64,000 nt of DNA from an uncultured virus (IMG/VR IMGVR_UViG_3300020173_001350) (taxonomy: Duplodnaviria; Heunggongvirae; Uroviricota; Caudoviricetes): the IMG/VR virus record IMGVR_UViG_3300020173_001350, one strand, 5' to 3'. Within the stretch, counting starts at the first letter, position 1, and the number at the start of each line of letters is the position of its first letter. Below are positions 7,688 to 44,448 of this stretch, piece after piece. The position numbers were made by a program, and so were the translations under genes. The notes under the pieces are model-generated. The model was not told the origin of the DNA, searched no databases, and saw only the letters and a program-made list of their open reading frames with translations.

Positions 7688-8062
7688 TTATTCTTTTAAA
7701 GCTTCCTCATAGTAAAGAATTATTGCTTTTTGTTCATTAATATAACGACGCAGCTCACCGATACCAATAGCAAGATTTTCGTATCCTTTAGGACCAACAG
7801 CAAAAACTACAAAGTTACCAGTTTGACCTTTAAGTTCTTCCATTTTTTCATCAATATTTTCTTCAGTAATAACGCTCCACTCAACAGGTGGAAACTCTAC
7901 CTTAGGAGGTCTAGCTTGAATTGGAATATTTTGTTTTTGATATTCAGTCTGAACTACTACTGTCGGTTCCGGTGTCCTCAGTCCGCACGCTGTCAGTGCT
8001 AGACTCGTCACCAGGAGCAGTAGTATCTTCAGCGATGTCTTGGATAAGTCTATCAACTGCAC
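7688..8062 (-). CDS. o-spanin-like outer-membrane lipoprotein (Rz1-like)
   Basis: Signal peptide with lipobox LTAC, Pro-rich linker, overlaps i-spanin 3' end. Confidence 0.75.
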   Translation of the reverse strand: MQLIDLSKTSLKILLLLVTSLALTACGLRTPEPTVVVQTEYQKQNIPIQARPPKVEFPPVEWSVITEENIDEKMEELKGQTGNFVVFAVGPKGYENLAIGIGELRRYINEQKAIILYYEEALKE

Positions 8063-8390
8063 GCTGTACCCTTTCCTCTAAGTTATCAGGATCCTGTAAG
8101 GCTTCCATAGTTAAATCAATGCGCGCGAATTTGTTCCGCAAAGTATTAAGATACTCGCGTGATTCGGCTAATTGTTTGGTAAGGTTTTGATTGAGCTCTT
8201 CGTTACGTTTAGCATCTGCAACCATTGTGTCTACTGTATTTTGCAGAGTTTCAGTTGCAGATACTAATTTAACGTTATTTTCACGAAGAGTGGTAATAGT
8301 CGCCTGGGACCATTCATAATAATTTTTAGCCCCATACCCTACACCACCAACGATACCTAGTACAATGACTAAAAGATATAATTTAGCCAT
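7944..8390 (-). CDS. i-spanin-like protein (Rz-like)
   Basis: N-terminal TM helix plus long coiled coil, overlapping lipoprotein gene, near endolysin. Confidence 0.75.
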   Translation of the reverse strand: MAKLYLLVIVLGIVGGVGYGAKNYYEWSQATITTLRENNVKLVSATETLQNTVDTMVADAKRNEELNQNLTKQLAESREYLNTLRNKFARIDLTMEALQDPDNLEERVQRAVDRLIQDIAEDTTAPGDESSTDSVRTEDTGTDSSSSD

Positions 8391-8650: not shown

Positions 8651-9502
8651 TTATTTAAACATTTTGGCTTGGGTTGCAGGACCAACGATACCGTCAGCAA
8701 CTAGGCCATTAAGTTTTTGCCATTTTTTAACTGATGTTAGCGTACCGAAACCAAAGTCTCCATCTGCAGTAATACCTAAAGCTTTCTGCATTGCAGCAAC
8801 ATCGTCGCCTTTCATACCTTTACGTAATGTACGACTTCCTGTTGATGTAGCTTCCTTTTTAGGTGTTGGGATTTCTCCACCAAGAATAGCTAACGCTTCT
8901 TCCCAACGACGTGTACGATCTTCAAGTCCAATAGTACCACCATTAATCTTTTTGGTTAATCCTTTGATGTCACCATTGTCGGCCCATTTGTCAAGTTTGT
9001 TTGTTGCCCAGAACCAACAAGCTGACTCGAGAGCTCCTCGTTCGGTTGCAACATAGTCTGCTGCTTCTTCAGCAGTCATACCTACAGTCTTGCCGAATGC
9101 TGTATAATTATTACGGCCAGTGAGCTGCTTAATACCCCTGCCGCGGAATCTCCAACCATCGCCATCTTCCACATTTCCCATTGCGCCTCGTTTACTTCTG
9201 AATTCATCTTGATAAACGTAGTTTGCAATTTTTTCAGGATTTCTAGCATATTCTTTAGCATCTCTTTTGCCCTTTCCGAAATAACGGCCAAAGACTGAGT
9301 TGAGCGCTTTTTCGCTATAATTTAAATTTTCTTCAAGCCTAGTAAAGTCTAATGACTCGTGAGCACATTGTGCCATAAACCCTGCGATTCGATTTGTTGT
9401 AGTAATATCGTATTTTTCAAATGCAGGCACCGCAGCGTCATACCACGCTTCAGGATTTTTATTCTTTGGAATCATTGCAGTAAATTGTTCTAATGTAATC
9501 AT
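8651..9502 (-). CDS. endolysin: GH19 chitinase/lysozyme domain plus C-terminal peptidoglycan-binding domain
   Basis: AQCAHES, ENLNYS, FRGRGIKQLTGRNNY, TKKINGG; PG-binding DGDFG...DGIVGPAT. Confidence 0.92.
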   Translation of the reverse strand: MITLEQFTAMIPKNKNPEAWYDAAVPAFEKYDITTTNRIAGFMAQCAHESLDFTRLEENLNYSEKALNSVFGRYFGKGKRDAKEYARNPEKIANYVYQDEFRSKRGAMGNVEDGDGWRFRGRGIKQLTGRNNYTAFGKTVGMTAEEAADYVATERGALESACWFWATNKLDKWADNGDIKGLTKKINGGTIGLEDRTRRWEEALAILGGEIPTPKKEATSTGSRTLRKGMKGDDVAAMQKALGITADGDFGFGTLTSVKKWQKLNGLVADGIVGPATQAKMFK

Positions 9503-12951: not shown

Positions 12952-13220
12952 TTTACTACCTTATCAGCAATTCGTTGACCTGCATTCTTAATAGCTCTAC
13001 GTGCCTTAATAGCACCTTTAACTGCTTTGGCAACACCTTTTGCGGTATGCTTAATACCTTGTGCAACCATAGGAGCAGCAATTGCCGCACCCACAACTTC
13101 AGGTGGAATACTTTCATTCTTTGGTACACAATTAGGTACCATCTTGTCACCTTTTTTCTTCATGCCAACCTGTTTGTAATCAGACCAGCATGCTTCCAAA
13201 TGTTGCTTGAAGCTATGCAT
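12948..13220 (-). CDS. small basic protein with capsid-targeting-like leader
   Basis: MHSFKQHLEA leader; CW..YKQVGMKKKG.KMVPNCVP. Confidence 0.65.
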   Translation of the reverse strand: MHSFKQHLEACWSDYKQVGMKKKGDKMVPNCVPKNESIPPEVVGAAIAAPMVAQGIKHTAKGVAKAVKGAIKARRAIKNAGQRIADKVVK

Positions 13221-16200
13221 TAGGTGTATCCTTCTTTAGTCTTTTAACTAATTTAGCTGTACCTTCTTCGCCTGCGCCAGCTTCTTCATTTCTTTTCTTT
13301 GATGATCCACAAGAGCTTTCATCTTTCATTGATTTTTTATTACGAACACGGTTTAATGCATTTCTAAATTTATCTTCTTTATCCTGAACACCACCGTTAG
13401 CAACAGATGCTAACTTTGCTGCTTCTTCAGACTCACCCATATTACGGCGTTTCATTTCTTTAGTGATACGCTTCATCATATGCTGAGTTGATGGCATTTT
13501 TTGATCTTGACCTTTGAATTGCTTATGTAAACTTTTTAGGTTATCATCAGATTGCTTTTTCATTTTAGCATCTTCATCAAGCTCTTCTACTTCTTCAAGG
13601 ATACGCTTTGCTTTAGAACCCTTATTTCTTACTTCTTGAGACATCTTGTTAGCATGCATAGTTAGATGGTATGCCATATGCAGATCCTTTGCCTTTTTTT
13701 GAATAGAACCATCTTTATCTGCACCTGAACTAGAATGAGAAGCATTAAAGTGTGCTTCTGCTGCCTTCTTATGATGGACTGAGGCTTGGTGATGCAATCT
13801 TTGTAAAGTTGGACTAGAAGATTTTTCGCCTGCCTTTGTATGAGCATCCGCAACCTCATTGTGATGTGCAGCAGTTTTATCATGAGCATCTGCTTGACTA
13901 CTCGTTACAGTATGACGCTTATTACCTGGCGCATCCCACTCATTCGCCGATGTGTCTTGTGTGTCACGAGAATCTTTCCCAGAAAACTTTTTAGTATGAT
14001 TCGGTGGCTTTACTGTCTGGTGTGTAAGATCTTCATCAAGTTCAAACTCTTCTTTTTTCAATTTTTTCTTTACCATACCTTGAAGACGATCATCTTCTTT
14101 GTCTAGTGCTTTGCGTGGGTCATAAGTTTTTGGATTACGATTTTTTGATCCACGACCTCTTGCAGGCTTGTCTGGTGATGGGTTTGCTCTTGCTGCCTTT
14201 ATTTTATCATATAGGCTCATTTCGGCTTCATCTAGTTCTACTTCTTCACGGATTTTAACTTTAAACATTTTTTCAACTGTTTGTTTACCCATAGTCTTAG
14301 CAAGATTAGTGATTAACCATTCGCGTGGTTCTGTATCAAGATCATCTACAAATTTAACGAATTTTATACCAGCATTACCAGATGATAGCATCTTTGCTGC
14401 TTTCATAAAGTCTGCTTTATCAATGCCACCGCTTTTCTTTGCATATGCTTCGATACTTGCAGCTGCCTTTTTCATTTGAGGCGTTGCTGCTTCATTAAGT
14501 GAGATGAATGCTTCAAACTTATCATCTAACGATTCAACAAAACCTTTATCACCTTTTTTCTTACCGTGGTTCATTACTTTTTTACCATGTGGTGTGAGGT
14601 TGCCTTTTTTATCATACATTTGATTTACTAGCTTTTTCTCAGCTGCTGTTAATTCGTCAAGTTCTACTTCCTCGTGATAATCAAATGCGCTTGATTTACC
14701 CCAAGACTTATCAGATTTACGCATATCCTTTAATTTTTTCATATTCTGTGCTAGTCTACTCTCACGTTCTGCTTTAGTGTTCTTAGGCTTGGCAGCCATA
14801 GCGTTTCTCCTAACTTCATTAACTGTTTCTACTGATTCATTAACCTTTGCAGCAAGGTCTTTATCAGCCTTACCCCATGTACCAGAGGATTTAGTAATAA
14901 ATGAATTTACTCGAGCATGTCCCCATTGTTCAGGTGTTGTTCCTGGGCGGTGACCTGTTTTCCATGCGGCAACACCACGGTTATATACTTTACGTAAAAT
15001 CCCTGCAGGCATGTCAGATTTCTTTGCTTTATCAGCTAATGATTTGCCTGCGGCATCTTCACCTAAAAAATCAAATTCTTCAGTGTAACCCATCGCTCGT
15101 GCTTTTTTTGTATGCTTTGATTCTTTTGTCTTTGCTTCTTTATCACCTGGTGCTGGCCTATATGCTGAAGGATCATCATCAGCCTTTTTAGCATTACGTT
15201 CAAAATGATCTTCACGGTCATCTTTCTTATTTTTAGCAACACCTGTGTAATATTTACCTGTTGTTTCGGTAAATTTTTCAACTGATTCCATAAGTTCAAC
15301 GATATCTTCAATATCAAACTCATTCATCTCTGTAACTTGTTTAGGTTTAAACATCTTAAACCGTTTATCAAACTTTGGTTTGTTGTTTTTATCCATAAGC
15401 ATATGTGGTCGCTTAGTTACATATGCACCCCACATCTCATTCAGATCAACAGACTCATTCTTATTATGACGTGCTTGTAATCTCTCACGTTCTTTCTTTT
15501 TAACAGAAGGTAACAATTTAATTGCCAGGTTATCAATACGTTGTTTTGAAATCTTTTCAATGCGTTTATCAATACGTTCCTTTTCCGCAGGCTCCATATC
15601 AGCATATCGTTTATTACCAGCAAGACGCTTTTTAATTATATTACGTGCTGCTTTTCTTGATCTTCTTTTCAAAACATCAATATTGGCACGGCGCCGCTTT
15701 GCCTTTTCCCGACCTCGTTTCATTTTAACACGCATTCTTCGCATTTGACGGCCGCGTTTAATACGCTGCTGTCGAGTCAAAGCTTCGTCTAATTCATCTT
15801 CTTCGATAAAGTTATCTTCGTTATATTCTTCCGACATTCCCATTCCCTTTTTAATGCTGGCCATAATGTCGGCCGCGCTTGTTTTTAGCTTACTAGGTAA
15901 TCCTGTAGTAAACTTTTTGATATTATCTGAAACAGCATACTCACGCATTTTTGATGCTGACATTCCTTTAACACCTTCAGCGTCAGGATCTCTAGCACCT
16001 GCGGATACAACTTCTATTTCATCAAATTTATATTCTTTACCATTGTATTTGTTAAGCAATGTATCCATCTCTTTATATCGGTCAGAACCAACAACGAGAG
16101 TTACCTTTTTAAATTTCTTTTGTAACTGCTGCATTAATTGAATGATTGTCTTGGCAGTTGATCTTTTAATGATTTTACCAAATGCTACCTCGGCATATTT

Positions 16201-16476
16201 GATCTTATCATTATATGACAATGGATTTTTTGTTTTATCTTGAGAATGTGTTAAAAATACAGCAGGAATAGCATTCTTTGATTTTGCTACATTTAAAACT
16301 CTATTGATAAGTTTTTCGTGCCCAGTTGTAATAGGGTTCATACGTCCCCAAGAAATAACAACCTCGCCTACTTTTGCTTCATTGATAGTAGGTTCAATAT
16401 CAATATAGTTTCCAGGATCAAATTCTTTAAATCCCTTAACCTTTTTCTTTTTGTCCTTATTGCTTTCGTCTGCCAT
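13213..16476 (-). CDS. cytidyltransferase-like (HIGH nucleotidyltransferase) domain fused to modular basic segments
   Basis: GRMNPITTGH, VVGSDR, SAGARDPD, MSASKMR; repeated EEVELDE-type linkers. Confidence 0.8.
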   Translation of the reverse strand: MADESNKDKKKKVKGFKEFDPGNYIDIEPTINEAKVGEVVISWGRMNPITTGHEKLINRVLNVAKSKNAIPAVFLTHSQDKTKNPLSYNDKIKYAEVAFGKIIKRSTAKTIIQLMQQLQKKFKKVTLVVGSDRYKEMDTLLNKYNGKEYKFDEIEVVSAGARDPDAEGVKGMSASKMREYAVSDNIKKFTTGLPSKLKTSAADIMASIKKGMGMSEEYNEDNFIEEDELDEALTRQQRIKRGRQMRRMRVKMKRGREKAKRRRANIDVLKRRSRKAARNIIKKRLAGNKRYADMEPAEKERIDKRIEKISKQRIDNLAIKLLPSVKKKERERLQARHNKNESVDLNEMWGAYVTKRPHMLMDKNNKPKFDKRFKMFKPKQVTEMNEFDIEDIVELMESVEKFTETTGKYYTGVAKNKKDDREDHFERNAKKADDDPSAYRPAPGDKEAKTKESKHTKKARAMGYTEEFDFLGEDAAGKSLADKAKKSDMPAGILRKVYNRGVAAWKTGHRPGTTPEQWGHARVNSFITKSSGTWGKADKDLAAKVNESVETVNEVRRNAMAAKPKNTKAERESRLAQNMKKLKDMRKSDKSWGKSSAFDYHEEVELDELTAAEKKLVNQMYDKKGNLTPHGKKVMNHGKKKGDKGFVESLDDKFEAFISLNEAATPQMKKAAASIEAYAKKSGGIDKADFMKAAKMLSSGNAGIKFVKFVDDLDTEPREWLITNLAKTMGKQTVEKMFKVKIREEVELDEAEMSLYDKIKAARANPSPDKPARGRGSKNRNPKTYDPRKALDKEDDRLQGMVKKKLKKEEFELDEDLTHQTVKPPNHTKKFSGKDSRDTQDTSANEWDAPGNKRHTVTSSQADAHDKTAAHHNEVADAHTKAGEKSSSPTLQRLHHQASVHHKKAAEAHFNASHSSSGADKDGSIQKKAKDLHMAYHLTMHANKMSQEVRNKGSKAKRILEEVEELDEDAKMKKQSDDNLKSLHKQFKGQDQKMPSTQHMMKRITKEMKRRNMGESEEAAKLASVANGGVQDKEDKFRNALNRVRNKKSMKDESSCGSSKKRNEEAGAGEEGTAKLVKRLKKDTPNA

Positions 16477-16485
16477 AAGATACCT

Positions 16486-17247
16486 CTATTCTCTGATTTT
16501 GTTTCTATTTATAATATTTACAGACCCTTTGGGTATAACGATTGATTCCTTTAGCTGACCTTTAAAGTTGTTCTTAAAAGATTCTAACATTTCGGCATGA
16601 TTATTATGAGTGGCACTATATTTCTGAATAGTTGATAATCTTAACCACCCAATTGCTGCTATAGGATCACAAATAGCCATTGGTATTTTAGTAAAATTTT
16701 TCCGACTGCTCATAAACCAACGATTATCAATTGCCTCGGTAACACCTACCTTTGTTACTTCATCAATCATTTTCTGCGCGGTAATGTGTGTAATAGCATA
16801 CGCATGAGAACCTGGATGAAATTTCACATCTTTAATTCTTTCGGGTTGACCTGCGGTTTTATAGTCATAGTTTTCCCATTCTCTATATTTGTATCCTAAC
16901 GCAACGATTTTGTTATCAGGAATATCCAACTTTACTTTATGAAGCATCATCCCATCGTGTTCTAATATAACAGCACATTCTTTATTCTGAACAATCCTTT
17001 GCCATAATTGTAAATGAGAAGCCATACAACCATGAGCACCAACCATCATTCTTTTAAATGATTTGATTGGAATTCCTGTTTCAGCGGTAAACTTTCTCCA
17101 CATTTGACCAGGACCACCTTGTGGTTTCCATCCTTCGTATAACTCATAATTTACTCCAAGCTTTTTACATTGCTCGGCAGCATCATTTGCGTATTGTTTT
17201 GATAGGTTATCATTAGTATAAATTATATAATACTTATTTACTTTCAT
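16486..17247 (-). CDS. glycosyltransferase family 25-like
   Basis: GCMASHLQLW...VILEHD, GSHAYAIT. Confidence 0.75.
   Translation of the reverse strand: MKVNKYYIIYTNDNLSKQYANDAAEQCKKLGVNYELYEGWKPQGGPGQMWRKFTAETGIPIKSFKRMMVGAHGCMASHLQLWQRIVQNKECAVILEHDGMMLHKVKLDIPDNKIVALGYKYREWENYDYKTAGQPERIKDVKFHPGSHAYAITHITAQKMIDEVTKVGVTEAIDNRWFMSSRKNFTKIPMAICDPIAAIGWLRLSTIQKYSATHNNHAEMLESFKNNFKGQLKESIVIPKGSVNIINRNKIRE
16506..16513 (-). promoter_or_regulatory. T4-type late promoter for the 1087-aa protein
   Basis: TATAAATA 30 nt upstream of start. Confidence 0.65.
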
Positions 17248-17941
17248 AATTAAATATCCTCATAATAGTAGGTTCTTGGATCATTCTCCTAGATGTTCCA
17301 TGTGCTAATTTATAACAAGGTCCTGTTAATGGCAATCCTTGTTTTCTTATTTTTGTCCATCGGCTGGCATTATATGGTGTAAACCAATGTGGGTTGTCAG
17401 GTGTTTCAGGAAGCGGTTTATGATTAGCCAGCCATGGTTTAGTTTTGTTCCACATTGTCTGACAAGCAGGGTCTTCTAATACATTATTAAATAAACCATG
17501 AAACCACAGATAATCCATATTTGGGCGGTTCTTCCAATATTCATCAACCAATAATTTCCACCGATCCACAATGCAATTATCTTTATCAGCATATAGAAAC
17601 CAACTTGCAACTTCGGTATCAGGTTTTGGTTTTCGGAACGCAAAGAAACCGGTTTTAGCATGAGCAGGTAACCAACTATCAAGTGGTTTATTACAAGCAA
17701 CGGTTGCATCTACCCATACTCCGCCGTATTCTTTAAGTAAGTTAATGCGAACAACATCAGACCATGCCTGAATGCTACGCCCATTTTGCGTGCCTTTGTA
17801 ATAATCCCTAAGATTTGTATTATCAAGTAATACTATTTTCCATGTAGGATTATGGTGTTTCCAACTGTCAACGCATTTATGAACAATTGGAGGTGCTGCT
17901 TTAATTCCTGTATTCCAATATATCCATAATGTTTTAATCAT
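17234..17941 (-). CDS. capsular polysaccharide synthesis protein / GT32-like glycosyltransferase
   Basis: LWIYWNTG, APPIV.KC..SW, SDVVRINLLKEYGGVWVDAT. Confidence 0.85.
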   Translation of the reverse strand: MIKTLWIYWNTGIKAAPPIVHKCVDSWKHHNPTWKIVLLDNTNLRDYYKGTQNGRSIQAWSDVVRINLLKEYGGVWVDATVACNKPLDSWLPAHAKTGFFAFRKPKPDTEVASWFLYADKDNCIVDRWKLLVDEYWKNRPNMDYLWFHGLFNNVLEDPACQTMWNKTKPWLANHKPLPETPDNPHWFTPYNASRWTKIRKQGLPLTGPCYKLAHGTSRRMIQEPTIMRIFNYESK

Positions 17942-18614
17942 AACCGAATACTTCCATATCTTTTTGAATTAACGGTTTAAGTTGTTTTACTAAATTGGCA
18001 TTCAAATATTCTTTATAATCTTTTCGTGCTGTTCTATTTTCATGCCCAAAGTTTATAGGTATGCCGAGTTTTTCCGATATAACCTTTTGTGCTTTATCCA
18101 TTTCCTCGAGTCTAAATACATCATCAACAATAAGATTATCTTTTTCATCATATACAAACTTCCATTGCGGTGCATTATGCGGAGTACGTATTTTCATATT
18201 ATTCCGCTGATATTCCATTTCCATAGCTCTAATCTGCTGTTCAAATGTCATATTTACTTTACCAGGTAGCCTTTCACGCTTCCAAATAACCTCAGATACA
18301 AATTTATGAAAAGGATTTCGGACAAATGCAAATGTATATTTAGATCCTGTGAAGGCTTTATCATTCCAAGCTTTCAATTGCCATGCTGATAAATGCTGTG
18401 TTTCACCAGTAGGTAATATTTCAGGTGTTGGTTGTCCAAAATGATACCGTGAGGCATTTATTCGCCCACCGTATTTTGTTATAAATTGCCGAAACATATT
18501 TCTTTCTTGAAAGTCAGGATAACCACATACATTACGAAGAAAGAATAATTCAACACTTGTTCCACCTGCTTTAGGAACATGGACAAAATAAGTATTGATT
18601 TCTGGGATATACAT
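17934..18614 (-). CDS. sulfotransferase (Sulfotransfer_2 family)
   Basis: FVHVPKAGGTS and FAFVRNP...FVS PAPS-binding motifs. Confidence 0.85.
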   Translation of the reverse strand: MYIPEINTYFVHVPKAGGTSVELFFLRNVCGYPDFQERNMFRQFITKYGGRINASRYHFGQPTPEILPTGETQHLSAWQLKAWNDKAFTGSKYTFAFVRNPFHKFVSEVIWKRERLPGKVNMTFEQQIRAMEMEYQRNNMKIRTPHNAPQWKFVYDEKDNLIVDDVFRLEEMDKAQKVISEKLGIPINFGHENRTARKDYKEYLNANLVKQLKPLIQKDMEVFGYD

Positions 18615-19255
18615 TATACAAACTCCTGTGGAACAACCTTATCATTCCACCAATTCTCATAATCATTTTTATAGTATTTTTTAATTCTTGTTATCTGATC
18701 TTTAGTAATAACAATTTTACTTTGTTTTTCTCTACCACCATCTTGTCGCTGCAGCGCAGGTACATCAGTGTTTGCAATTTCTGATAACCATTCACGCATA
18801 TCTGTGCTAACCTGTGATACTGTAAAGATCTTATCATATCGGTTAGGATCGTTACCTAGCCAATACGTCATTGGAAAAGAATGGTGAGAAATATCACCTG
18901 CTGCATAGTTACCTAAGTTATCAACAAAATTATCCCACCCACGATTTCTCATCTTATTATAAAATAACACTCGGTTTGTATAACAAGACACAAGTCTTTT
19001 AATAGGATCACGGATAATAGTAAACCGATAATCTACGTTACCAAATTTACCTTTTCCATGCCGATCCATGAATTTGTTATTTTGTTTTTGATGTTTTCTT
19101 TGGCTTATTGGCAATCCCCAATCATTTGCCGGGGAGTTTCTCCAATCAAATCCTGATGCTTCAAGCATCATACATTTTGCGGATGTACCGCCGCATTTTG
19201 GTATATGCGTAAACTCAACTACTTTATTGTTGATTTCAACTGTAAAGACTGGCAT
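18614..19255 (-). CDS. sulfotransferase (Sulfotransfer_2 family)
   Basis: HIPKCGGTS, IIRDPIKRLVS; likely start MPVF at 19255. Confidence 0.85.
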   Translation of the reverse strand: MPVFTVEINNKVVEFTHIPKCGGTSAKCMMLEASGFDWRNSPANDWGLPISQRKHQKQNNKFMDRHGKGKFGNVDYRFTIIRDPIKRLVSCYTNRVLFYNKMRNRGWDNFVDNLGNYAAGDISHHSFPMTYWLGNDPNRYDKIFTVSQVSTDMREWLSEIANTDVPALQRQDGGREKQSKIVITKDQITRIKKYYKNDYENWWNDKVVPQEFV

Positions 19256-19276
19256 AATATAACCTTTAAAATGATG

Positions 19277-19303
19277 AAAGGTGCCCAACTAATGAACACC
19301 TTT
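19277..19303 (-). terminator. hairpin/terminator closing the DUF1127-atpE operon
   Basis: AAAGGTGTTCA-loop-TGGGCACCTTT on minus strand. Confidence 0.5.
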
Positions 19304-19304
19304 T

Positions 19305-19312
19305 TATTTATA
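19305..19312 (-). promoter_or_regulatory. T4-type late promoter upstream of sulfotransferase/glycosyltransferase cluster
   Basis: TATAAATA. Confidence 0.55.
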
Positions 19313-19520
19313 TTACTTTACAGTCGAATGTTGACTTAGCTAATTTGACTGGAACTCCGCCTGCCTCAATGCAAGCTTCGGACCAATTAGGTTGTTTAAA
19401 CTTTTGAATTACCGCAAAAAATCCAAATGCAATACACACTACAGTTAAAAGTGTCATTACAAAGAAAGCGTAAAAACCAACCTTATCGACTATCTCAGCC
19501 GAAGGTGTTGTTGGCCCCAT
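19308..19520 (-). CDS. small single-TM membrane protein with C-terminal Cys pair
   Basis: Hydrophobic helix; C..AGG.P......FDC; abuts atpE stop. Confidence 0.6.
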   Translation of the reverse strand: MGPTTPSAEIVDKVGFYAFFVMTLLTVVCIAFGFFAVIQKFKQPNWSEACIEAGGVPVKLAKSTFDCKVI

Positions 19521-19745
19521 TTAGACAACGGCAAACATTAGCAAAAGCGCTACGAGAAATGCGAAGATTCCTAATGCTTCAGCAAACGCAATACCAACAA
19601 ACATTGTACCTGTATCTGGTTTCTTAGGCATTACTTTTAGTACACTACCAACAATCATTCCTACTCCGATGGCAGCGCCACCCATTCCGAATGTTGCTAG
19701 CCCTGCGCCAATTAAGGCACCCATTGTTGCGATATCACCGGTCAT
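19521..19745 (-). CDS. atpE: F0 ATP synthase subunit c homologue with atypical loop
   Basis: [16 protein letters not shown] helix 1; [23 protein letters not shown] helix 2 with ion-binding Glu. Confidence 0.92.
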
Positions 19746-19923
19746 TTTGCAATCTCCCGATTTCCATCATACAACGTTTCGATTCCTCTATCATACCCAT
19801 TCTTGCGAGCTCCGCTGCCGCTCGGCTGTAGCCAATCATTTGCGAATAACGATCTAGTGAAGACCACAAACCCGACAAGGGCGAAAAGACATAGTTTGCT
19901 ACTAAAGTTGTCATTAAACCCAC
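19735..19923 (-). CDS. small hypothetical protein
   Basis: Overlaps both neighbours; [11 protein letters not shown] helix. Confidence 0.6.
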
Positions 19924-20144
19924 CCTCTCAAATTATCGTTTTGATTATGAGCAATGTACCAAATATCACCTCTACTGAGACCAATATCGTTTAACTCTTT
20001 ATCAGTTAATTTAGATAATTCTTTGATGGTTTGTTTAGCTATTTTCTTTGCAGCTCTCTCTTGTTTGAAAGTTCTGTATGCTTCAATGATAGTTTCAATT
20101 GCCCTCGTTGAGTAGCTGTGGGCCATAAGGATTGCTTGTGTCAT
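19914..20144 (-). CDS. DUF1127 (YjiS-like) small protein
   Basis: ELSKLTDKELNDIGLSRGDI signature; SD AGAGG. Confidence 0.9.
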   Translation of the reverse strand: MTQAILMAHSYSTRAIETIIEAYRTFKQERAAKKIAKQTIKELSKLTDKELNDIGLSRGDIWYIAHNQNDNLRGWV

Positions 20145-20305
20145 TTCCGTTTCCTCTAATATATGTGTATGTTGTATGATCCGATCCTAGACCGTATGCC
20201 TAGGTTTAATCCTTTTTACAAATATATTTATTAGGAAAATAGGTAAATAAGGGTTACCAATTTGGAATAGCCGTTATTCGGTTTAGACAACAGTGACAAA
20301 TTGTC

Positions 20306-21091
20306 TTATGGAATAGGATTGTCTACTAATATTAAATCGTAAGTTGCACCACAACCTACTGAACCGACAGTGATAACATCAACTTTAATGTCAGTTTTTT
20401 CTGGAAACCTAAGAGGTACAGCATATTCAAAGTTTACTGGATTACCACCTTGTGATCCAAGCTGTGATTTAATATTAAATGCAGTTCCATTATCTACTGG
20501 ACGTGACATTAATCTAAAGTATGTTGGAGCATTTGTTTTATCCATTGTACAAGTCAATTGCATCAAATACGCCGTCTTACCGGCAGGAACTGTATAGGTA
20601 CTCATCAAAGTTTGACCGTTGTCTGCTAATATAATAGCGTATGTAGTTCCACCAATTGAGAAGGTAACATCATTCTCATTTTGATCGCCTGTCATATAAG
20701 CACGGTAGATACGATAAAATTCTGCGGTGGTTGTTCCACCAATTGTTGTTTCTTCTGATACGATATTATAATTTACGTCAAGTCCTTCAACAACAACTGT
20801 CTCACCGCTTTGAGACGAAGAAGCAACTGTTACTACACCCGCTGCGGTTGGCCAAGTATATACACCATTTGAACCATCCCAAATAGTAGTCGTACCATTA
20901 ATATCGTCACCTGTATGAGCGAACTTGTTGATATGAGAATATCCATCTACTTGCCCCGCAGCAATTGGAATATTAGACGCCGAACCAAATGTGTTGATAA
21001 TATTGCCGTCTTTATCTGCTAGAACAAATGCTTCAAATAAAGTTTTATTACCTTGTAAAAAAGCTTGAGTTAGTTTGTTCCAAATAGCCAT
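20306..21091 (-). CDS. hypothetical protein, probably virion structural (beta-rich)
   Basis: Thr/Gly-rich, YTVPAGKTAYL motif common in phage structural proteins. Confidence 0.5.
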   Translation of the reverse strand: MAIWNKLTQAFLQGNKTLFEAFVLADKDGNIINTFGSASNIPIAAGQVDGYSHINKFAHTGDDINGTTTIWDGSNGVYTWPTAAGVVTVASSSQSGETVVVEGLDVNYNIVSEETTIGGTTTAEFYRIYRAYMTGDQNENDVTFSIGGTTYAIILADNGQTLMSTYTVPAGKTAYLMQLTCTMDKTNAPTYFRLMSRPVDNGTAFNIKSQLGSQGGNPVNFEYAVPLRFPEKTDIKVDVITVGSVGCGATYDLILVDNPIP

Positions 21092-28690: not shown

Positions 28691-28850
28691 CTGTTTTCTC
28701 CTTTTTAATATGAGTTATGTTTGAGCTGGCCTTTTTAGACCCGCAAGACTTACAATAATGTAAAGTAATTAAATACCTATGGTTATCAAACTCAGCTATT
28801 GTTTGATTCCTTACAATATTAATATTATCACAACATCCATTTATTGTCAA
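28680..28850 (-). CDS. putative 56-aa zinc-ribbon protein (not in ORF track)
   Basis: TTG start; MTINGCCDN...HYCKSCGSKK...; fills the gap exactly and overlaps both neighbours. Confidence 0.5.
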   Translation of the reverse strand: MTINGCCDNINIVRNQTIAEFDNHRYLITLHYCKSCGSKKASSNITHIKKEKTDVC

Positions 28851-29506
28851 CCGTTTTCTTCCTCTTTTGTTTTATATTGCCATTCATCAGTGTGGCCAAC
28901 CGACCATTTGGGTTGATCTTCTACTGCGTAGTTTTGAGTACACACTTTAAAATCAGGTCGTTTCAAATTAGCAGGTGTTAATGAACTGTCTCTCCATATA
29001 ACTCTGTTGTTTGGTTGAGCAGCGAATTGACCATTATCAAGTCTAATAACATTAAATGATTTGTGCTCTGGATCGTGTTCTGAAAAATTAGTATCGAGAT
29101 ATGCGTTATCTCTGTGAGCATTATCTATGGTAAATTCGTATTCTCCTGCGTGCATCTTTTTGTCTTTTCCAAAAAACTCACACCTACACAAGATTGGCTT
29201 TTGGATAACGGTAAGGTCGTAATCAAAACAATCCCAAAGCTGAAGAACATCAAGTGGAAGCTGGTCTTCAAGATCGAAGTCTTCTTTCCAAACAAAAGCT
29301 GATATAGGTAATTTATCATATAATGCTCCATAGTCTGTAAGAAGTGTTTCAAAATATAACGCTTTTGATTGAGTTGATTTAACACTAATCCAAATGCCAG
29401 GAGTTAAGTTACCCCATCCTCGGTCGTCAGCGAAATCCAAATCGTATAGATATTCCATTTTAACATATACGTTTACTGGTGGCAAGGGATGTACTAAAAA
29501 CGCCAT
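28847..29506 (-). CDS. conserved marine T4-like phage hypothetical protein
   Basis: ALYFE..L.DYGALYDKLPISAF, LQLWDCF, EHKSFN...GQFAAQPNNR. Confidence 0.7.
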   Translation of the reverse strand: MAFLVHPLPPVNVYVKMEYLYDLDFADDRGWGNLTPGIWISVKSTQSKALYFETLLTDYGALYDKLPISAFVWKEDFDLEDQLPLDVLQLWDCFDYDLTVIQKPILCRCEFFGKDKKMHAGEYEFTIDNAHRDNAYLDTNFSEHDPEHKSFNVIRLDNGQFAAQPNNRVIWRDSSLTPANLKRPDFKVCTQNYAVEDQPKWSVGHTDEWQYKTKEEENG

Positions 29507-30190
29507 TTAAATCTCCTCGAATAGCACGTTATTTACATATTCATCTTTATCTTTTTCGGATATACCCATTGCTAAAATAGATCTATGAAGATGCGGATTA
29601 AGCTTTTGATTTTGACAATACTTATTTAATAGAGGTGTTGTTTCACGCCGACTGTAAAATGTGTTATCATCAAGGTTGTCGAGATAATAATCTACCAAAT
29701 CAGTTGTCACTTGTATAAACTGATTAAGCTCATCATCAGTATTAATATTACCAACCGCAAGCATATCACTTGAAAAGATTTCTTTTGCCCACGGTGGTAA
29801 TTCACGTGGTTTATTCCATTCTAGGTTAGCAACTCGCCGTTCCATATAATCATGGTAAGGATGTGCAAAACCTAACAATGGTGAAAAGTCCATAAATGAT
29901 CCTGTAATCTTTTTGGGACCGGCAACAATATCAAACCCAAGAATAGGTAATTCAATATTTGCTTTTGGAAATACGTTAACGTGCATCAACCATAAACCTT
30001 TACCGTTTTCTGGTACAATGGTTTTCAAATGCGCTTTGTAGATTTGATCTGAATTCCAAAAGGTATCAGTCCATCCAGGAAAGTGCATATCATCAGTATA
30101 TTTTTGGTTATCATATCGCTTAAACTTATTATCAAATGAATTTGATATGTATTCAGCATAGCTGTTAAGCCGATCCCATAGTGGTGTCAT
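29507..30190 (-). CDS. pcyX: ferredoxin-dependent bilin reductase, PcyX-like
   Basis: MHVNVFP...PILGFDIVAGPKKITGSFMDFSP, RELPPWA..IFS, YCQNQKLNPH; near heme oxygenase. Confidence 0.85.
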   Translation of the reverse strand: MTPLWDRLNSYAEYISNSFDNKFKRYDNQKYTDDMHFPGWTDTFWNSDQIYKAHLKTIVPENGKGLWLMHVNVFPKANIELPILGFDIVAGPKKITGSFMDFSPLLGFAHPYHDYMERRVANLEWNKPRELPPWAKEIFSSDMLAVGNINTDDELNQFIQVTTDLVDYYLDNLDDNTFYSRRETTPLLNKYCQNQKLNPHLHRSILAMGISEKDKDEYVNNVLFEEI

Positions 30191-42784: not shown

Positions 42785-43845
42785 GCTATCTGCTGTGCCT
42801 CAATATATAACTCATCAATTACTTTAAGAATATTTCCTTTATCAACACTTGTATCAATTGATTCAATATATTGATGTAAAATATCCTTTGTGTCTTTTGT
42901 TTCATCTAGGATCTCATCAACTCCTGCATCTTCAAGGTTTAACGAGTCCTCAATTGCTTTTACATCGGCAGCACCCGAGTCGGTAAGCTTATTCATAAAC
43001 AGATCATAGATATACGGATTTGATCTTGTCTTTACGATTACTTTAATGTATGTATCTTTAATTGCCGAAACATCAAGGTTAGCAATATCTTCAATTGTCA
43101 TATCGGTATCATCATAGTCAATTTTATTATATACCGCATATGGATTAAGAACCCATTCAAGCTCACGTGTTTCAGTATCAAGAACACGGAAACCACGTCG
43201 ACCTTCATAATCCGACCAAGTCATTTCATATGGTGCACCAAGATATTTGATATTTCCATATTCTGATGGATGATGAAAGTGTCCTGAGTATACTTGTTCA
43301 AAATGTGTAAAGATTTCACGCGTCAACCCGTGGTCATTGATAGCTCCTTTGAGCATTTCAAATCCTTGGATTGAAAAGTGACCCATACAAATATTTGCTT
43401 TTGATTCTGCCATTGTAGTCATAGTGTCTTCTGAATTATCTTTTGTAATCCATGGAACCATTATAACATCGGTTGAGCCAAATGTCAACTCAACAGGTTT
43501 ACTTTCGTAAATATGGAACTTGCTATATTCTTGAAGTAACAACCGCATTGAATTGATTTCGTTTGTATTTGTATAGTATACCGAATGATTACCAACGATT
43601 GCGTGGTATTCAATCTCACGTTTTGCTAGCTGGTCAAAAAACATCTTTTTAGCACGGTCAAGCGTAACGTAATTAACAAACTTGCGTCGGTCAAACGTAT
43701 CACCTAAATCGAGTACTGTTTTAATGTTGTGCTCATCAATATACGGAAAGAATACTTCATTAAAGAACCTTTCCTGATGATCCAGAAATACTTTAGAGTC
43801 ACCACGTACACCAATGTGCATATCAGTAATAATTGCTATTTTCAT
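42781..43845 (-). CDS. gp47: recombination endonuclease subunit (Mre11/SbcD-like)
   Basis: TDMHIG, LGDTFD, GNH, SGHFH. Confidence 0.95.
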   Translation of the reverse strand: MKIAIITDMHIGVRGDSKVFLDHQERFFNEVFFPYIDEHNIKTVLDLGDTFDRRKFVNYVTLDRAKKMFFDQLAKREIEYHAIVGNHSVYYTNTNEINSMRLLLQEYSKFHIYESKPVELTFGSTDVIMVPWITKDNSEDTMTTMAESKANICMGHFSIQGFEMLKGAINDHGLTREIFTHFEQVYSGHFHHPSEYGNIKYLGAPYEMTWSDYEGRRGFRVLDTETRELEWVLNPYAVYNKIDYDDTDMTIEDIANLDVSAIKDTYIKVIVKTRSNPYIYDLFMNKLTDSGAADVKAIEDSLNLEDAGVDEILDETKDTKDILHQYIESIDTSVDKGNILKVIDELYIEAQQIA

Positions 43846-44354
43846 TTCTTTTTCGCTTTATCCTTAGCCAACTTATCTTCAAAATCCTGAACGAACGAGT
43901 TCATATAATCAGCATTTGTTGTTAAGTTAAGAGTTACATCTTCACCTGTATAGGTACCACCTGATGCAAGCATTTGTTGAGATGATTTAAAACGAATATA
44001 CATTTGCTTCTTTTCTTTTTGAATACGGCGTAGAAATGCGAACCAAATAATTTGTGTGAAGTAAGCAAACGGGTTTTGAGATTTCTCAGGATTAAAGTTA
44101 TTAATATATTGTAGACAATTCTCAATACCGTCACTAATCATATCTTCCTTATACGAATAGCCACTAAAATTTGGTTTAGTTGCCAATCGTGTTGCGATCT
44201 GATAAATGCATTTGCCGATATAGTCAGGAACACGTGGAATTTCATCACCACTGTCCTCTGCTTCTTTAATCCGTCCTTTGTATGCAATCAATGCTTCATA
44301 TAAGTCTTTATTGTTGACGTAATTTTTCTTACGAGGTTTCGTAGGTTTTCCCAT
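43842..44354 (-). CDS. gp55: late transcription sigma factor
   Basis: YVNNKD, KPNFSGYSY.EDMISDGIENC, NPFAYFTQ...AFLRRI.KEK. Confidence 0.95.
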   Translation of the reverse strand: MGKPTKPRKKNYVNNKDLYEALIAYKGRIKEAEDSGDEIPRVPDYIGKCIYQIATRLATKPNFSGYSYKEDMISDGIENCLQYINNFNPEKSQNPFAYFTQIIWFAFLRRIQKEKKQMYIRFKSSQQMLASGGTYTGEDVTLNLTTNADYMNSFVQDFEDKLAKDKAKKK

Positions 44355-44448
44355 TACGGTATCCTCCTTTACTGAGATTAGTTTTAATATATCGCAACTC
44401 TGTGGTATTGTCAATGGATTTTTTTTCTAACATAACTGAAATTAACTA

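Follow-up and report, generated by a model that had tools for sequence, protein, structure and literature searches.

The stretch of DNA considered here, referred to as the window, comprises 64,000 nucleotides (nt) of an uncultured virus of the Caudoviricetes (IMG/VR record IMGVR_UViG_3300020173_001350), and carries at positions 19308-20144 of its minus strand a row of four small open reading frames (ORFs) that we call the cassette. These are g1 (19914-20144), which encodes a DUF1127 protein of 76 amino acids (aa; PF06568, phrog_26566); g2 (19735-19914 or 19735-19923), for a small helical protein that belongs to no family and spans 59 aa from an ATG or 62 aa from a GTG; g3 (19521-19745), for a 74-aa c subunit of an F-type ATP synthase (PF00137); and g4 (19308-19520), for a 70-aa single-pass membrane protein, also without a family. 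Overlaps of 1 nt between g1 and g2 (10 nt with the GTG start of g2) and of 11 nt between g2 and g3 join these genes, whereas g3 and g4 abut, with TAA followed by ATG. On the same strand, a non-coding leader of 161 nt (20145-20305) lies between a phrog_8198 gene and g1, and a terminator-like hairpin (19277-19303) directly follows the g4 stop codon. A preliminary description of the locus, made from the sequence alone, had reported four overlapping or abutting small ORFs behind a leader of about 160 nt and ending at a hairpin, and the ORF map confirms this layout. Purifying selection acts on all four genes, the median ratios of nonsynonymous to synonymous substitution (dN/dS) being 0.09 for g3, 0.22 for g4 and 0.36 for each of g1 and g2. 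PADLOC had no match to any of the four proteins, and NCBIfam none to g1, g2 or g4. The phage records of INPHARED, from which the window's own or very near genomes are possibly excluded, gave no DNA match to positions 19200-20400 and no tblastn match to the g3 protein.

The g3 protein scored 48.4 bits against PF00137 (cut-off 24, E = 1.1e-12), and its closest solved relative is the c subunit of Paracoccus denitrificans (PDB 5dn6_J, E = 2.2e-16). Its first named cellular homologs, from Neptunicoccus, Amylibacter and Rhodovulum, are 63-67% identical to it, and on this sequence evidence g3 is derived from the Rhodobacterales. Helix 2 is 87% identical to that of six cellular c subunits, as compared with 68% for helix 1 and 19% for the loop that joins them. 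The proton-binding Glu56 and 25 further columns are invariant over the phage and cellular rows of the alignment (A2), and the g3 protein of the window retains the GxGxGxG packing motif of helix 1, including the host-type GVG. Its AlphaFold2 model is a hairpin of two transmembrane helices (residues 2-38 and 45-72; predicted local distance difference test score, pLDDT, 79.5), for which the top chain in Foldseek was again 5dn6_J (probability 1.00, template modeling score 0.63), all E-values being above 0.001. The dN/dS value for g3 comes from 1326 pairs among 52 distinct coding sequences, with median pS and pN of 0.58 and 0.09.

The departure from the cellular form lies in the polar loop. In cellular c subunits this loop reads G-A-L-R-N-P, followed by eleven residues before the Met-Phe with which helix 2 begins. 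The corresponding segment (ARNPS in the bovine and yeast proteins) links the c ring to the central stalk, according to the available part of one published account (PMC3542316). In the g3 protein of the window, V-M-P-K-K-P replaces Arg-Asn-Pro and the loop is 5 residues shorter, so that the R[NQ]P signature of an AtpE polar loop is absent; the earlier designation of this gene as an atypical AtpE is thus upheld. Mutational evidence from Escherichia coli indicates that the polar loop of c is required for coupling. Against the NCBIfam equivalog model NF005733 the g3 protein reached 67.6 bits, short of the cut-off of 85, whereas a Neptunicoccus control (P0094) passed with 104.7. We surveyed the loop in the 120 best homologs (P0001-P0120) of 894 protein matches to g3. 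R[NQ]P was absent from 84 of these, while ALRNP was kept in 36, including every named cellular homolog and all the named Rhodobacterales. Phage-type loops can be arranged as a series, from VNP through AMP or ALP with a following HRS and AVK to the short VMPKKP, and the Arg is gone in every form. Relatives of g3 are common and comprise 85 on viral contigs in addition to the protein matches, which include Tara Oceans material, and public records name the protein simply as ATP synthase subunit C. Because it is recorded as a plain c subunit, metabolic surveys will count it as an ordinary host-like function.

The occurrence of g4 is closely tied to that of g3. A scan of g3 loci, covering the best 80 of the 85 viral-contig relatives and placing the window proteins by tblastn, found g4 behind g3 in 78 of the 80, with both misses at contig ends. 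Conversely, g3 lies directly upstream of g4 in 79 of 80 loci recovered by scanning viral contigs with a g4 alignment, and the remaining locus starts at base 3 of its contig. A g4 profile retrieved only 7 proteins from 1.84 billion representatives, and a search of 185,579 species genomes returned two phage-like contigs of a single metagenome-assembled genome (MAG) labeled Rhodobacteraceae, plus one spurious helix match. A match assigned to the Acidimicrobiales (L243) proved to be a helix look-alike inside a 193-aa membrane protein. The phage contigs with g3 and g4 in the Rhodobacteraceae MAG (L241 and L242), where the c subunit is annotated as belonging to the bacterium, may give a weak hint of the host. 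Another member of the protein cluster (P0129), from a MAG labeled Saprospirales, likely stems from a mis-binned phage contig, and its c subunit is likewise named as bacterial.

The predicted structure of g4 (pLDDT 81.6) consists of a helix at residues 6-42, a second helix at 46-52 and a beta hairpin. Residues G15, F19, M22, L25, C29, G33, F34, V37 and C50 are invariant (alignment A1), the second Cys being located in the C-terminal mini-domain. Two forms of the protein were seen: a long one with two Cys residues and a short one of 49-69 aa that accompanies the K-[YH]-M-P-K-K type of g3 loop, an association that may reflect lineage linkage only. The top match of g4 to PDB profiles (PetG, E = 1.6) was treated as chance, and the idea that g4 is a truncated b subunit found no sequence support in Pfam at E<=1 or in the PDB profiles. 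Prediction of a complex of three g3 proteins with g4 scored 0.00 in two runs with unfolded controls and speaks neither for nor against a contact. We also considered a holin or lysis cassette and rejected it, as g3 and g4 are not next to lysis genes; the endolysin (8651-9502) and Rz-like (7688-8390) genes are about 10 kb away.

The two upstream genes are of a different kind. The g1 protein matches the Pfam DUF1127 family with 39.5 bits (cut-off 23.3, E = 4.7e-10), as well as phrog_26566, and combines an N-terminal extension with a conserved C-terminal NLRGWV. For g2, the ATG at 19914 is the more likely start than the GTG at 19923, because it has a GAGGG 9-13 nt upstream and forms a TAATG stop-start junction with g1. 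Its core, G..RAA..L...G, is invariant (alignment A3). No family was assigned to g2 in Pfam, PHROGs, NCBIfam or PADLOC, its top match to PDB profiles (E = 0.3) was treated as chance, and the searches made found no cellular relatives. In its Atlas clusters all members of known taxon carry the Viruses label, which marks g2 as a phage-only family.

Within the 80 g3 loci, tblastn placed g1 in 72 and g2 in 67. Four of the eight loci lacking a g1 match have less than 260 nt upstream of g3, and three more (L058, L074 and L078) carry an ORF that Pfam confirms as DUF1127. A DUF1127 gene therefore precedes g3 in every assessable locus examined, leaving out L075, which shares identical g3 and g4 with L074. 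In 77 of 79 loci there is an ORF that ends at the start of g3, and in 74 this ORF has the g2 motif. In L074, L075 and L078, g2 is replaced by a 40-aa hydrophobic peptide and an acidic protein of 55-59 aa, and g3 and g4 are present. The surroundings vary widely, with at least 17 families upstream (64 loci) and at least 20 downstream (68 loci). The check proposed at the outset, namely whether the four genes co-occur in related phages, was accordingly answered in the affirmative for these best 80 viral-contig loci, in which the same gene order recurs between varied flanks. A fifth gene of 44 aa follows g4 in 35 g3 loci (e.g., L004:1073-1207), with none in the window; its invariant core includes M-E-Y-R-S-Y-C-M, and its homology to g2 was unsupported (hhalign probability 24%).

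The pair of g1 and g2 extends well beyond the cassette. There are 404 viral relatives of g2 as against 85 of g3. We scanned the best 80 of these 404, which are those most like the g2 of the window, so that the resulting share is not an unbiased one: all 75 assessable loci have DUF1127 upstream of g2; 23 of them have g3 and g4 downstream, and the other 52 lack both. Two loci, L218 and L025, are collinear (hsp20, DUF1127, g2 and the same downstream gene), and only the latter contains g3 and g4. As most assessable loci of the pair lack g3 and g4, and given this collinear example, the cassette is a composite of an older DUF1127-g2 pair and a later g3-g4 insert, which has since then never been seen outside the pair. 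The preliminary description had regarded the four genes as a self-contained unit, a view that the wider distribution of the pair contradicts. Its proposal that the neighbors of the variant c subunit are partners of the c ring fits g4, which was never seen without a variant c subunit, and does not fit g1 and g2, which occur without g3 in most of the assessable loci; a role as dedicated assembly factors of the c ring is therefore unlikely for DUF1127 and g2. In related phages other genes are found at the same site. A cytochrome c (PF00034) directly follows the pair in L181 (1684-2091), and a pseudoazurin-like protein of the plastocyanin/azurin family (PF00127) follows the 44-aa fifth gene in L006 (5602-6030) and others. 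In addition, hsp20 (PF00011) is often just upstream of the pair, and such an energy- and stress-gene site is also listed at L008:4085-4573. To judge from these annotations, the DUF1127-g2 site appears to be a spot where host-type genes for energy and stress functions tend to land.

The leader contains a conserved box (20225-20247, minus strand) that ends in TAATAAATA (20225-20233, with ATAAATA at 20225-20231); the g1 ATG is located 81 nt downstream. The box has a single match in the window and is found again ahead of DUF1127 in many loci that otherwise differ. ATAAATA occurs 29 times in the window, with 16 copies fully intergenic versus 3.5 expected, and most of the intergenic copies precede a same-strand gene by 29-110 nt, the genes for the tail tube and a head protein among them. 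The window also encodes a gp55-like late sigma factor (phrog_234, 43842-44414), and we take an ATAAATA-type box to be the late-promoter consensus of marine T4-like phages. Because of this distribution and the sigma gene, the leader box fits a T4-type late promoter. Sites resembling sigma-70 promoters were at chance level in a consensus scan (5 versus 5.0 expected). Downstream of the box, in what is presumed to be a 5' untranslated region, RNAalifold identified a small hairpin followed by a conserved ATCGGATCA box (20186-20204, minus strand); the hairpin has 7 stem pairs with 1 compensatory change, a weak signal from only 5 leaders. A search of Rfam with positions 19000-20500 returned no family at E<=1 except for one chance-level snoRNA row (E = 0.9).

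The hairpin at the other end of the cassette (19303-19277) has 11 pairs and a 5-nt loop with a folding energy of -13.8 kcal/mol (z = -4.0), and none of 200 shuffled sequences folded as well. Its tail, CATCATTTTA, is a poor U-tract. A perfect TATAAATA, read off the minus strand at 19305-19312, shares bases with the g4 stop codon immediately 5' of the hairpin and may be a late promoter of two sulfotransferase genes that lie downstream. In that case, the role of the hairpin need not be limited to termination, and it could also be a 5' structure in the transcript of these genes.

All or part of the stretch occurs in 24 sequencing runs from 17 studies, and 18 of the runs are recorded as RNA. The analysis covered contigs and not raw reads; they show neither strand, ends, timing nor level, and DNA may be present, so that they attest only to a sequence present as one piece. 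A salt-marsh metatranscriptome (X4) contains a single 826-nt contig that covers 19298-20123 without a mismatch and spans g4, g3, g2 and most of g1. Its depth is 50.3, versus 3-5 for the flanking contigs, and the bin at 20244-20477 is uncovered, although contig depth cannot rank genes and the gap proves nothing. In three other libraries (X1-X3) cover is even across the whole 7 kb, with contigs up to 53 kb, and is uninformative on transcription. The contigs of three RNA libraries break at 19900-19939 and at 20094-20123, with loose ends that enter other sequence. It seems that phage variants present together have g3 and g4 in common and differ in the region of g1 and g2, a reading of the breaks that fits the much lower g1/g2 identity between loci with identical g3 (L002 and L003).

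The source is a marine T4-like phage of about 221 kb whose host is probably a Rhodobacterales bacterium. The T4-type genes of the window for replication and late transcription are those for DNA polymerase, a gp41-like helicase, UvsX, gp32, a helicase loader, gp46/47, the gp55-like sigma factor, UvsW/UvsY, topoisomerase II, ribonucleotide reductase and thymidylate synthase, and further genes encode an endolysin and Rz-like spanins. Upstream of the cassette lie phrog_8198 and DUF6267 genes, the phrog_8198 protein being 47% identical to cyanomyophage proteins, some of which are recorded as tail fiber or virion structural; downstream are the two sulfotransferases and then glycosyltransferases. The earlier placement of the cassette in the late or virion region is therefore only partly right, and the wider area holds T4-type replication genes. 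The surface-sugar gene run directly downstream of the cassette (13213-19288, minus strand) encodes a 1087-aa protein with a cytidyltransferase-like N-terminus, a member of glycosyltransferase family 25, a capsule-synthesis-like transferase and the two sulfotransferases. Elsewhere, at 28847-30190 on the minus strand, a ferredoxin-dependent bilin reductase gene (PF05996, 29507-30190) adjoins a gene for a phrog_3704 protein, a pair that resembles the hemO/pcyX-type cassette of marine phage metagenomes, as far as the available text of PMC11480375 describes it. For whole-genome questions we used the nearest virus record, near-identical and complete (G001; 221,447 bp, CheckV 100%), which matches the window letter for letter in the four cassette proteins and the two flanking genes. 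Searches of this genome with PF00119, PF00430 and PF00006 found no a, b or alpha/beta subunit besides its one c gene, and there was no match to the T4 holin family PF11031, for which the positive controls did not match either.

The anatomy of the cassette, its conservation and linkage, the origin of g3 and the loss of its loop are established. What they may mean is a more tentative matter. The interpretation that we favor, at somewhat less than an even chance of being correct, is that the g3 protein would enter the host Fo as a rotor subunit unable to dock F1 and would thereby uncouple host energy conversion late in infection, with g4 as its dedicated partner. In such a scheme the first layer of the cassette, the widespread DUF1127-g2 phage pair, would supply promoter and leader, its own job probably being regulatory. 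The second layer, g3, would be a captured host rotor subunit that was inserted later together with g4. The g3 protein appears to keep the parts that fit a ring against the host a subunit, namely the helix packing motif, a nearly host-identical helix 2 and the proton-binding Glu, and to have lost the Arg-Asn-Pro loop by which c-rings hold on to the F1 stalk of gamma/epsilon. Its frozen helices argue that it must still fit host parts, that is, neighboring c subunits and the a subunit, and the steady loss of the docking Arg together with free variation in loop length and sequence argues for a rotor subunit not meant to grip F1. Late in infection it would insert into the host membrane, with g4 helping or holding it, and would build or invade Fo rotors on which F1 could not properly dock. 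Proton flow through Fo would then be decoupled from ATP synthesis and hydrolysis, as a leak, a poisoned rotor or both.

Several observations weigh against this uncoupling proposal. The loop Pro is mostly retained, and the short, Lys-rich loop may still bind gamma/epsilon. In related phages, a cytochrome c or a protein like pseudoazurin is encoded within or next to the cassette slot, and electron carriers there suggest that host energetics are sustained rather than short-circuited. The fact that g3 is never separated from a DUF1127 gene hints at a functional tie that the two-layer view underplays. An uncoupler would, moreover, cost the phage ATP.

A variant of the uncoupling proposal, which we regard as rather unlikely, is that g3 and g4 would form a phage-built, F1-free Fo, with the host a subunit or alone, that F1 could not cap and that would provide a controlled proton leak late in infection. 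If true, it would amount to a phage-encoded energy switch by which the membrane potential is set, so as to time lysis, exclude superinfecting phages or speed up respiration, and to a new class of host-takeover device built from a sabotaged host part. The electron carriers next to the cassette in related phages are more readily accommodated if g3 retunes the rotor, an explanation to which we give a small probability. Here hybrid rings of host and phage subunits would still dock F1 via the remaining host loops, and a changed ring size or ion-to-ATP ratio would sustain ATP synthesis at the falling proton-motive force of a dying cell. The host-like helix 2 and Glu agree with this, as does the replacement of Gly by Ala or Ser in the GxGxGxG motif of helix 1 in 29 of 76 phage-type c subunits, compared with none of 28 cellular ones; Gly changes of such kind in the packing motif alter ring size. 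However, the g3 protein of the window has the host-type GVG, retuning would not require all 84 phage-type sequences to have lost the docking Arg, and g4 is left without a role. By analogy with mitochondria, g3 rings might instead act as an F1-independent channel that g4 would gate, plug or help to assemble, giving a timed depolarization for lysis timing or superinfection exclusion, which we likewise consider improbable. Purified c-rings form a large-conductance channel subject to inhibition by the F1 subcomplex, as reported in the part of PMC9433415 available to us. The missing F1 dock and the late-type promoter are in keeping with such a channel, and no T4-type holin was recognized in G001, in a search lacking a positive control. 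But the concept of a c-ring channel is a mitochondrial one, and debated; the near host-identical helix 2 suggests that the protein must face the host a subunit, a constraint that would not apply to a free pore, and the lysis genes lie about 10 kb from the cassette.

Two further readings differ in how much of the cassette they draw upon. If all four proteins formed one complex, as the preliminary description proposed, DUF1127 and g2 would assemble or regulate a g3 ring with g4. The tight gene junctions and the invariable presence of DUF1127 upstream of g3 in the assessable loci examined, even in the distant type represented by L074/L078, where other genes stand in place of g2, speak for this, and the DUF1127 protein YjiS of Salmonella associates with the inner membrane (PMC11707872, available part). 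We nevertheless doubt it strongly: g3 and g4 are both absent from 52 of the 75 assessable loci of the pair, L074, L075 and L078 have g3 and g4 without g2, and unrelated genes occupy the same slot in other phages. Finally, g3 could be an ordinary spare part that replaces or tops up host c and keeps ATP synthase running, much as psbA tops up photosystem II in cyanophages. Pfam and public records do describe a plain c subunit, and purifying selection on it is strong. This last possibility appears to us very improbable, as the F1-coupling motif is gone in all phage-type forms and unchanged in cellular relatives, the protein falls below the equivalog cut-off, and it has an obligate, phage-only partner in g4.

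ATP synthase is not a recognized direct target of phage-encoded subunit mimics. Our literature search found, in the portions of the papers that were available, no account of a phage-encoded c subunit or of a phage DUF1127 cassette, the sole atpE match being a bacterial N-ATPase operon. If g3 uncouples or retunes Fo, this would show late control of host energy by phages of the abundant marine Rhodobacterales. Its natural loop-loss series, on an otherwise frozen rotor subunit, is also a ready set of variants for studies of rotor-stalk coupling. The DUF1127-g2 pair, in turn, represents a widespread phage module behind which host energy genes (g3, cytochrome c and the pseudoazurin-like gene) have landed repeatedly.

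Compared with known systems, g3 resembles the Rhodobacterales AtpE (PF00137, NF005733, 5dn6 chain J) in its two-helix hairpin, its GxGxGxG motif, the AFAEALGIF segment with the Glu and an overall identity of 63-67%. It differs in lacking the Arg-Asn-Pro loop, in a loop that is 5 residues shorter, in its equivalog score below the cut-off, and in being encoded by a phage that has no a, b or F1 genes, with g4 always following it. The g1 protein is like small DUF1127 proteins in that its domain scores above the Pfam cut-off, and CcaF1 of Rhodobacter sphaeroides, from the bacterial order of the presumed host, is an RNA-binding member of that family (PMC8034643, in the available part). Members of the same family in Agrobacterium, the SDPs, bind the sensor kinase PhoR (PMC12501420, as cited in the accessible part of PMC12648545). 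Unlike its small cellular counterparts, g1 is phage-encoded, has 76 aa with a different N-terminal part and is always trailed by g2. The mitochondrial c-subunit leak channel (ACLC), described as F1-gated in the available part of PMC9433415, would be matched by a g3 ring that could not be capped, if the loss of the loop abolishes docking; the ACLC is eukaryotic, however, and the likeness is one of analogy only. Plastocyanin and PTOX of cyanophages are auxiliary metabolic genes of electron transport. In the same manner, g3 is a host-derived bioenergetic gene in a marine T4-like phage, and cytochrome c and plastocyanin/azurin genes occur at its slot in relatives. But whereas the cyanophage genes are intact copies thought to sustain the host, g3 has lost a motif that is essential to its function in the host.

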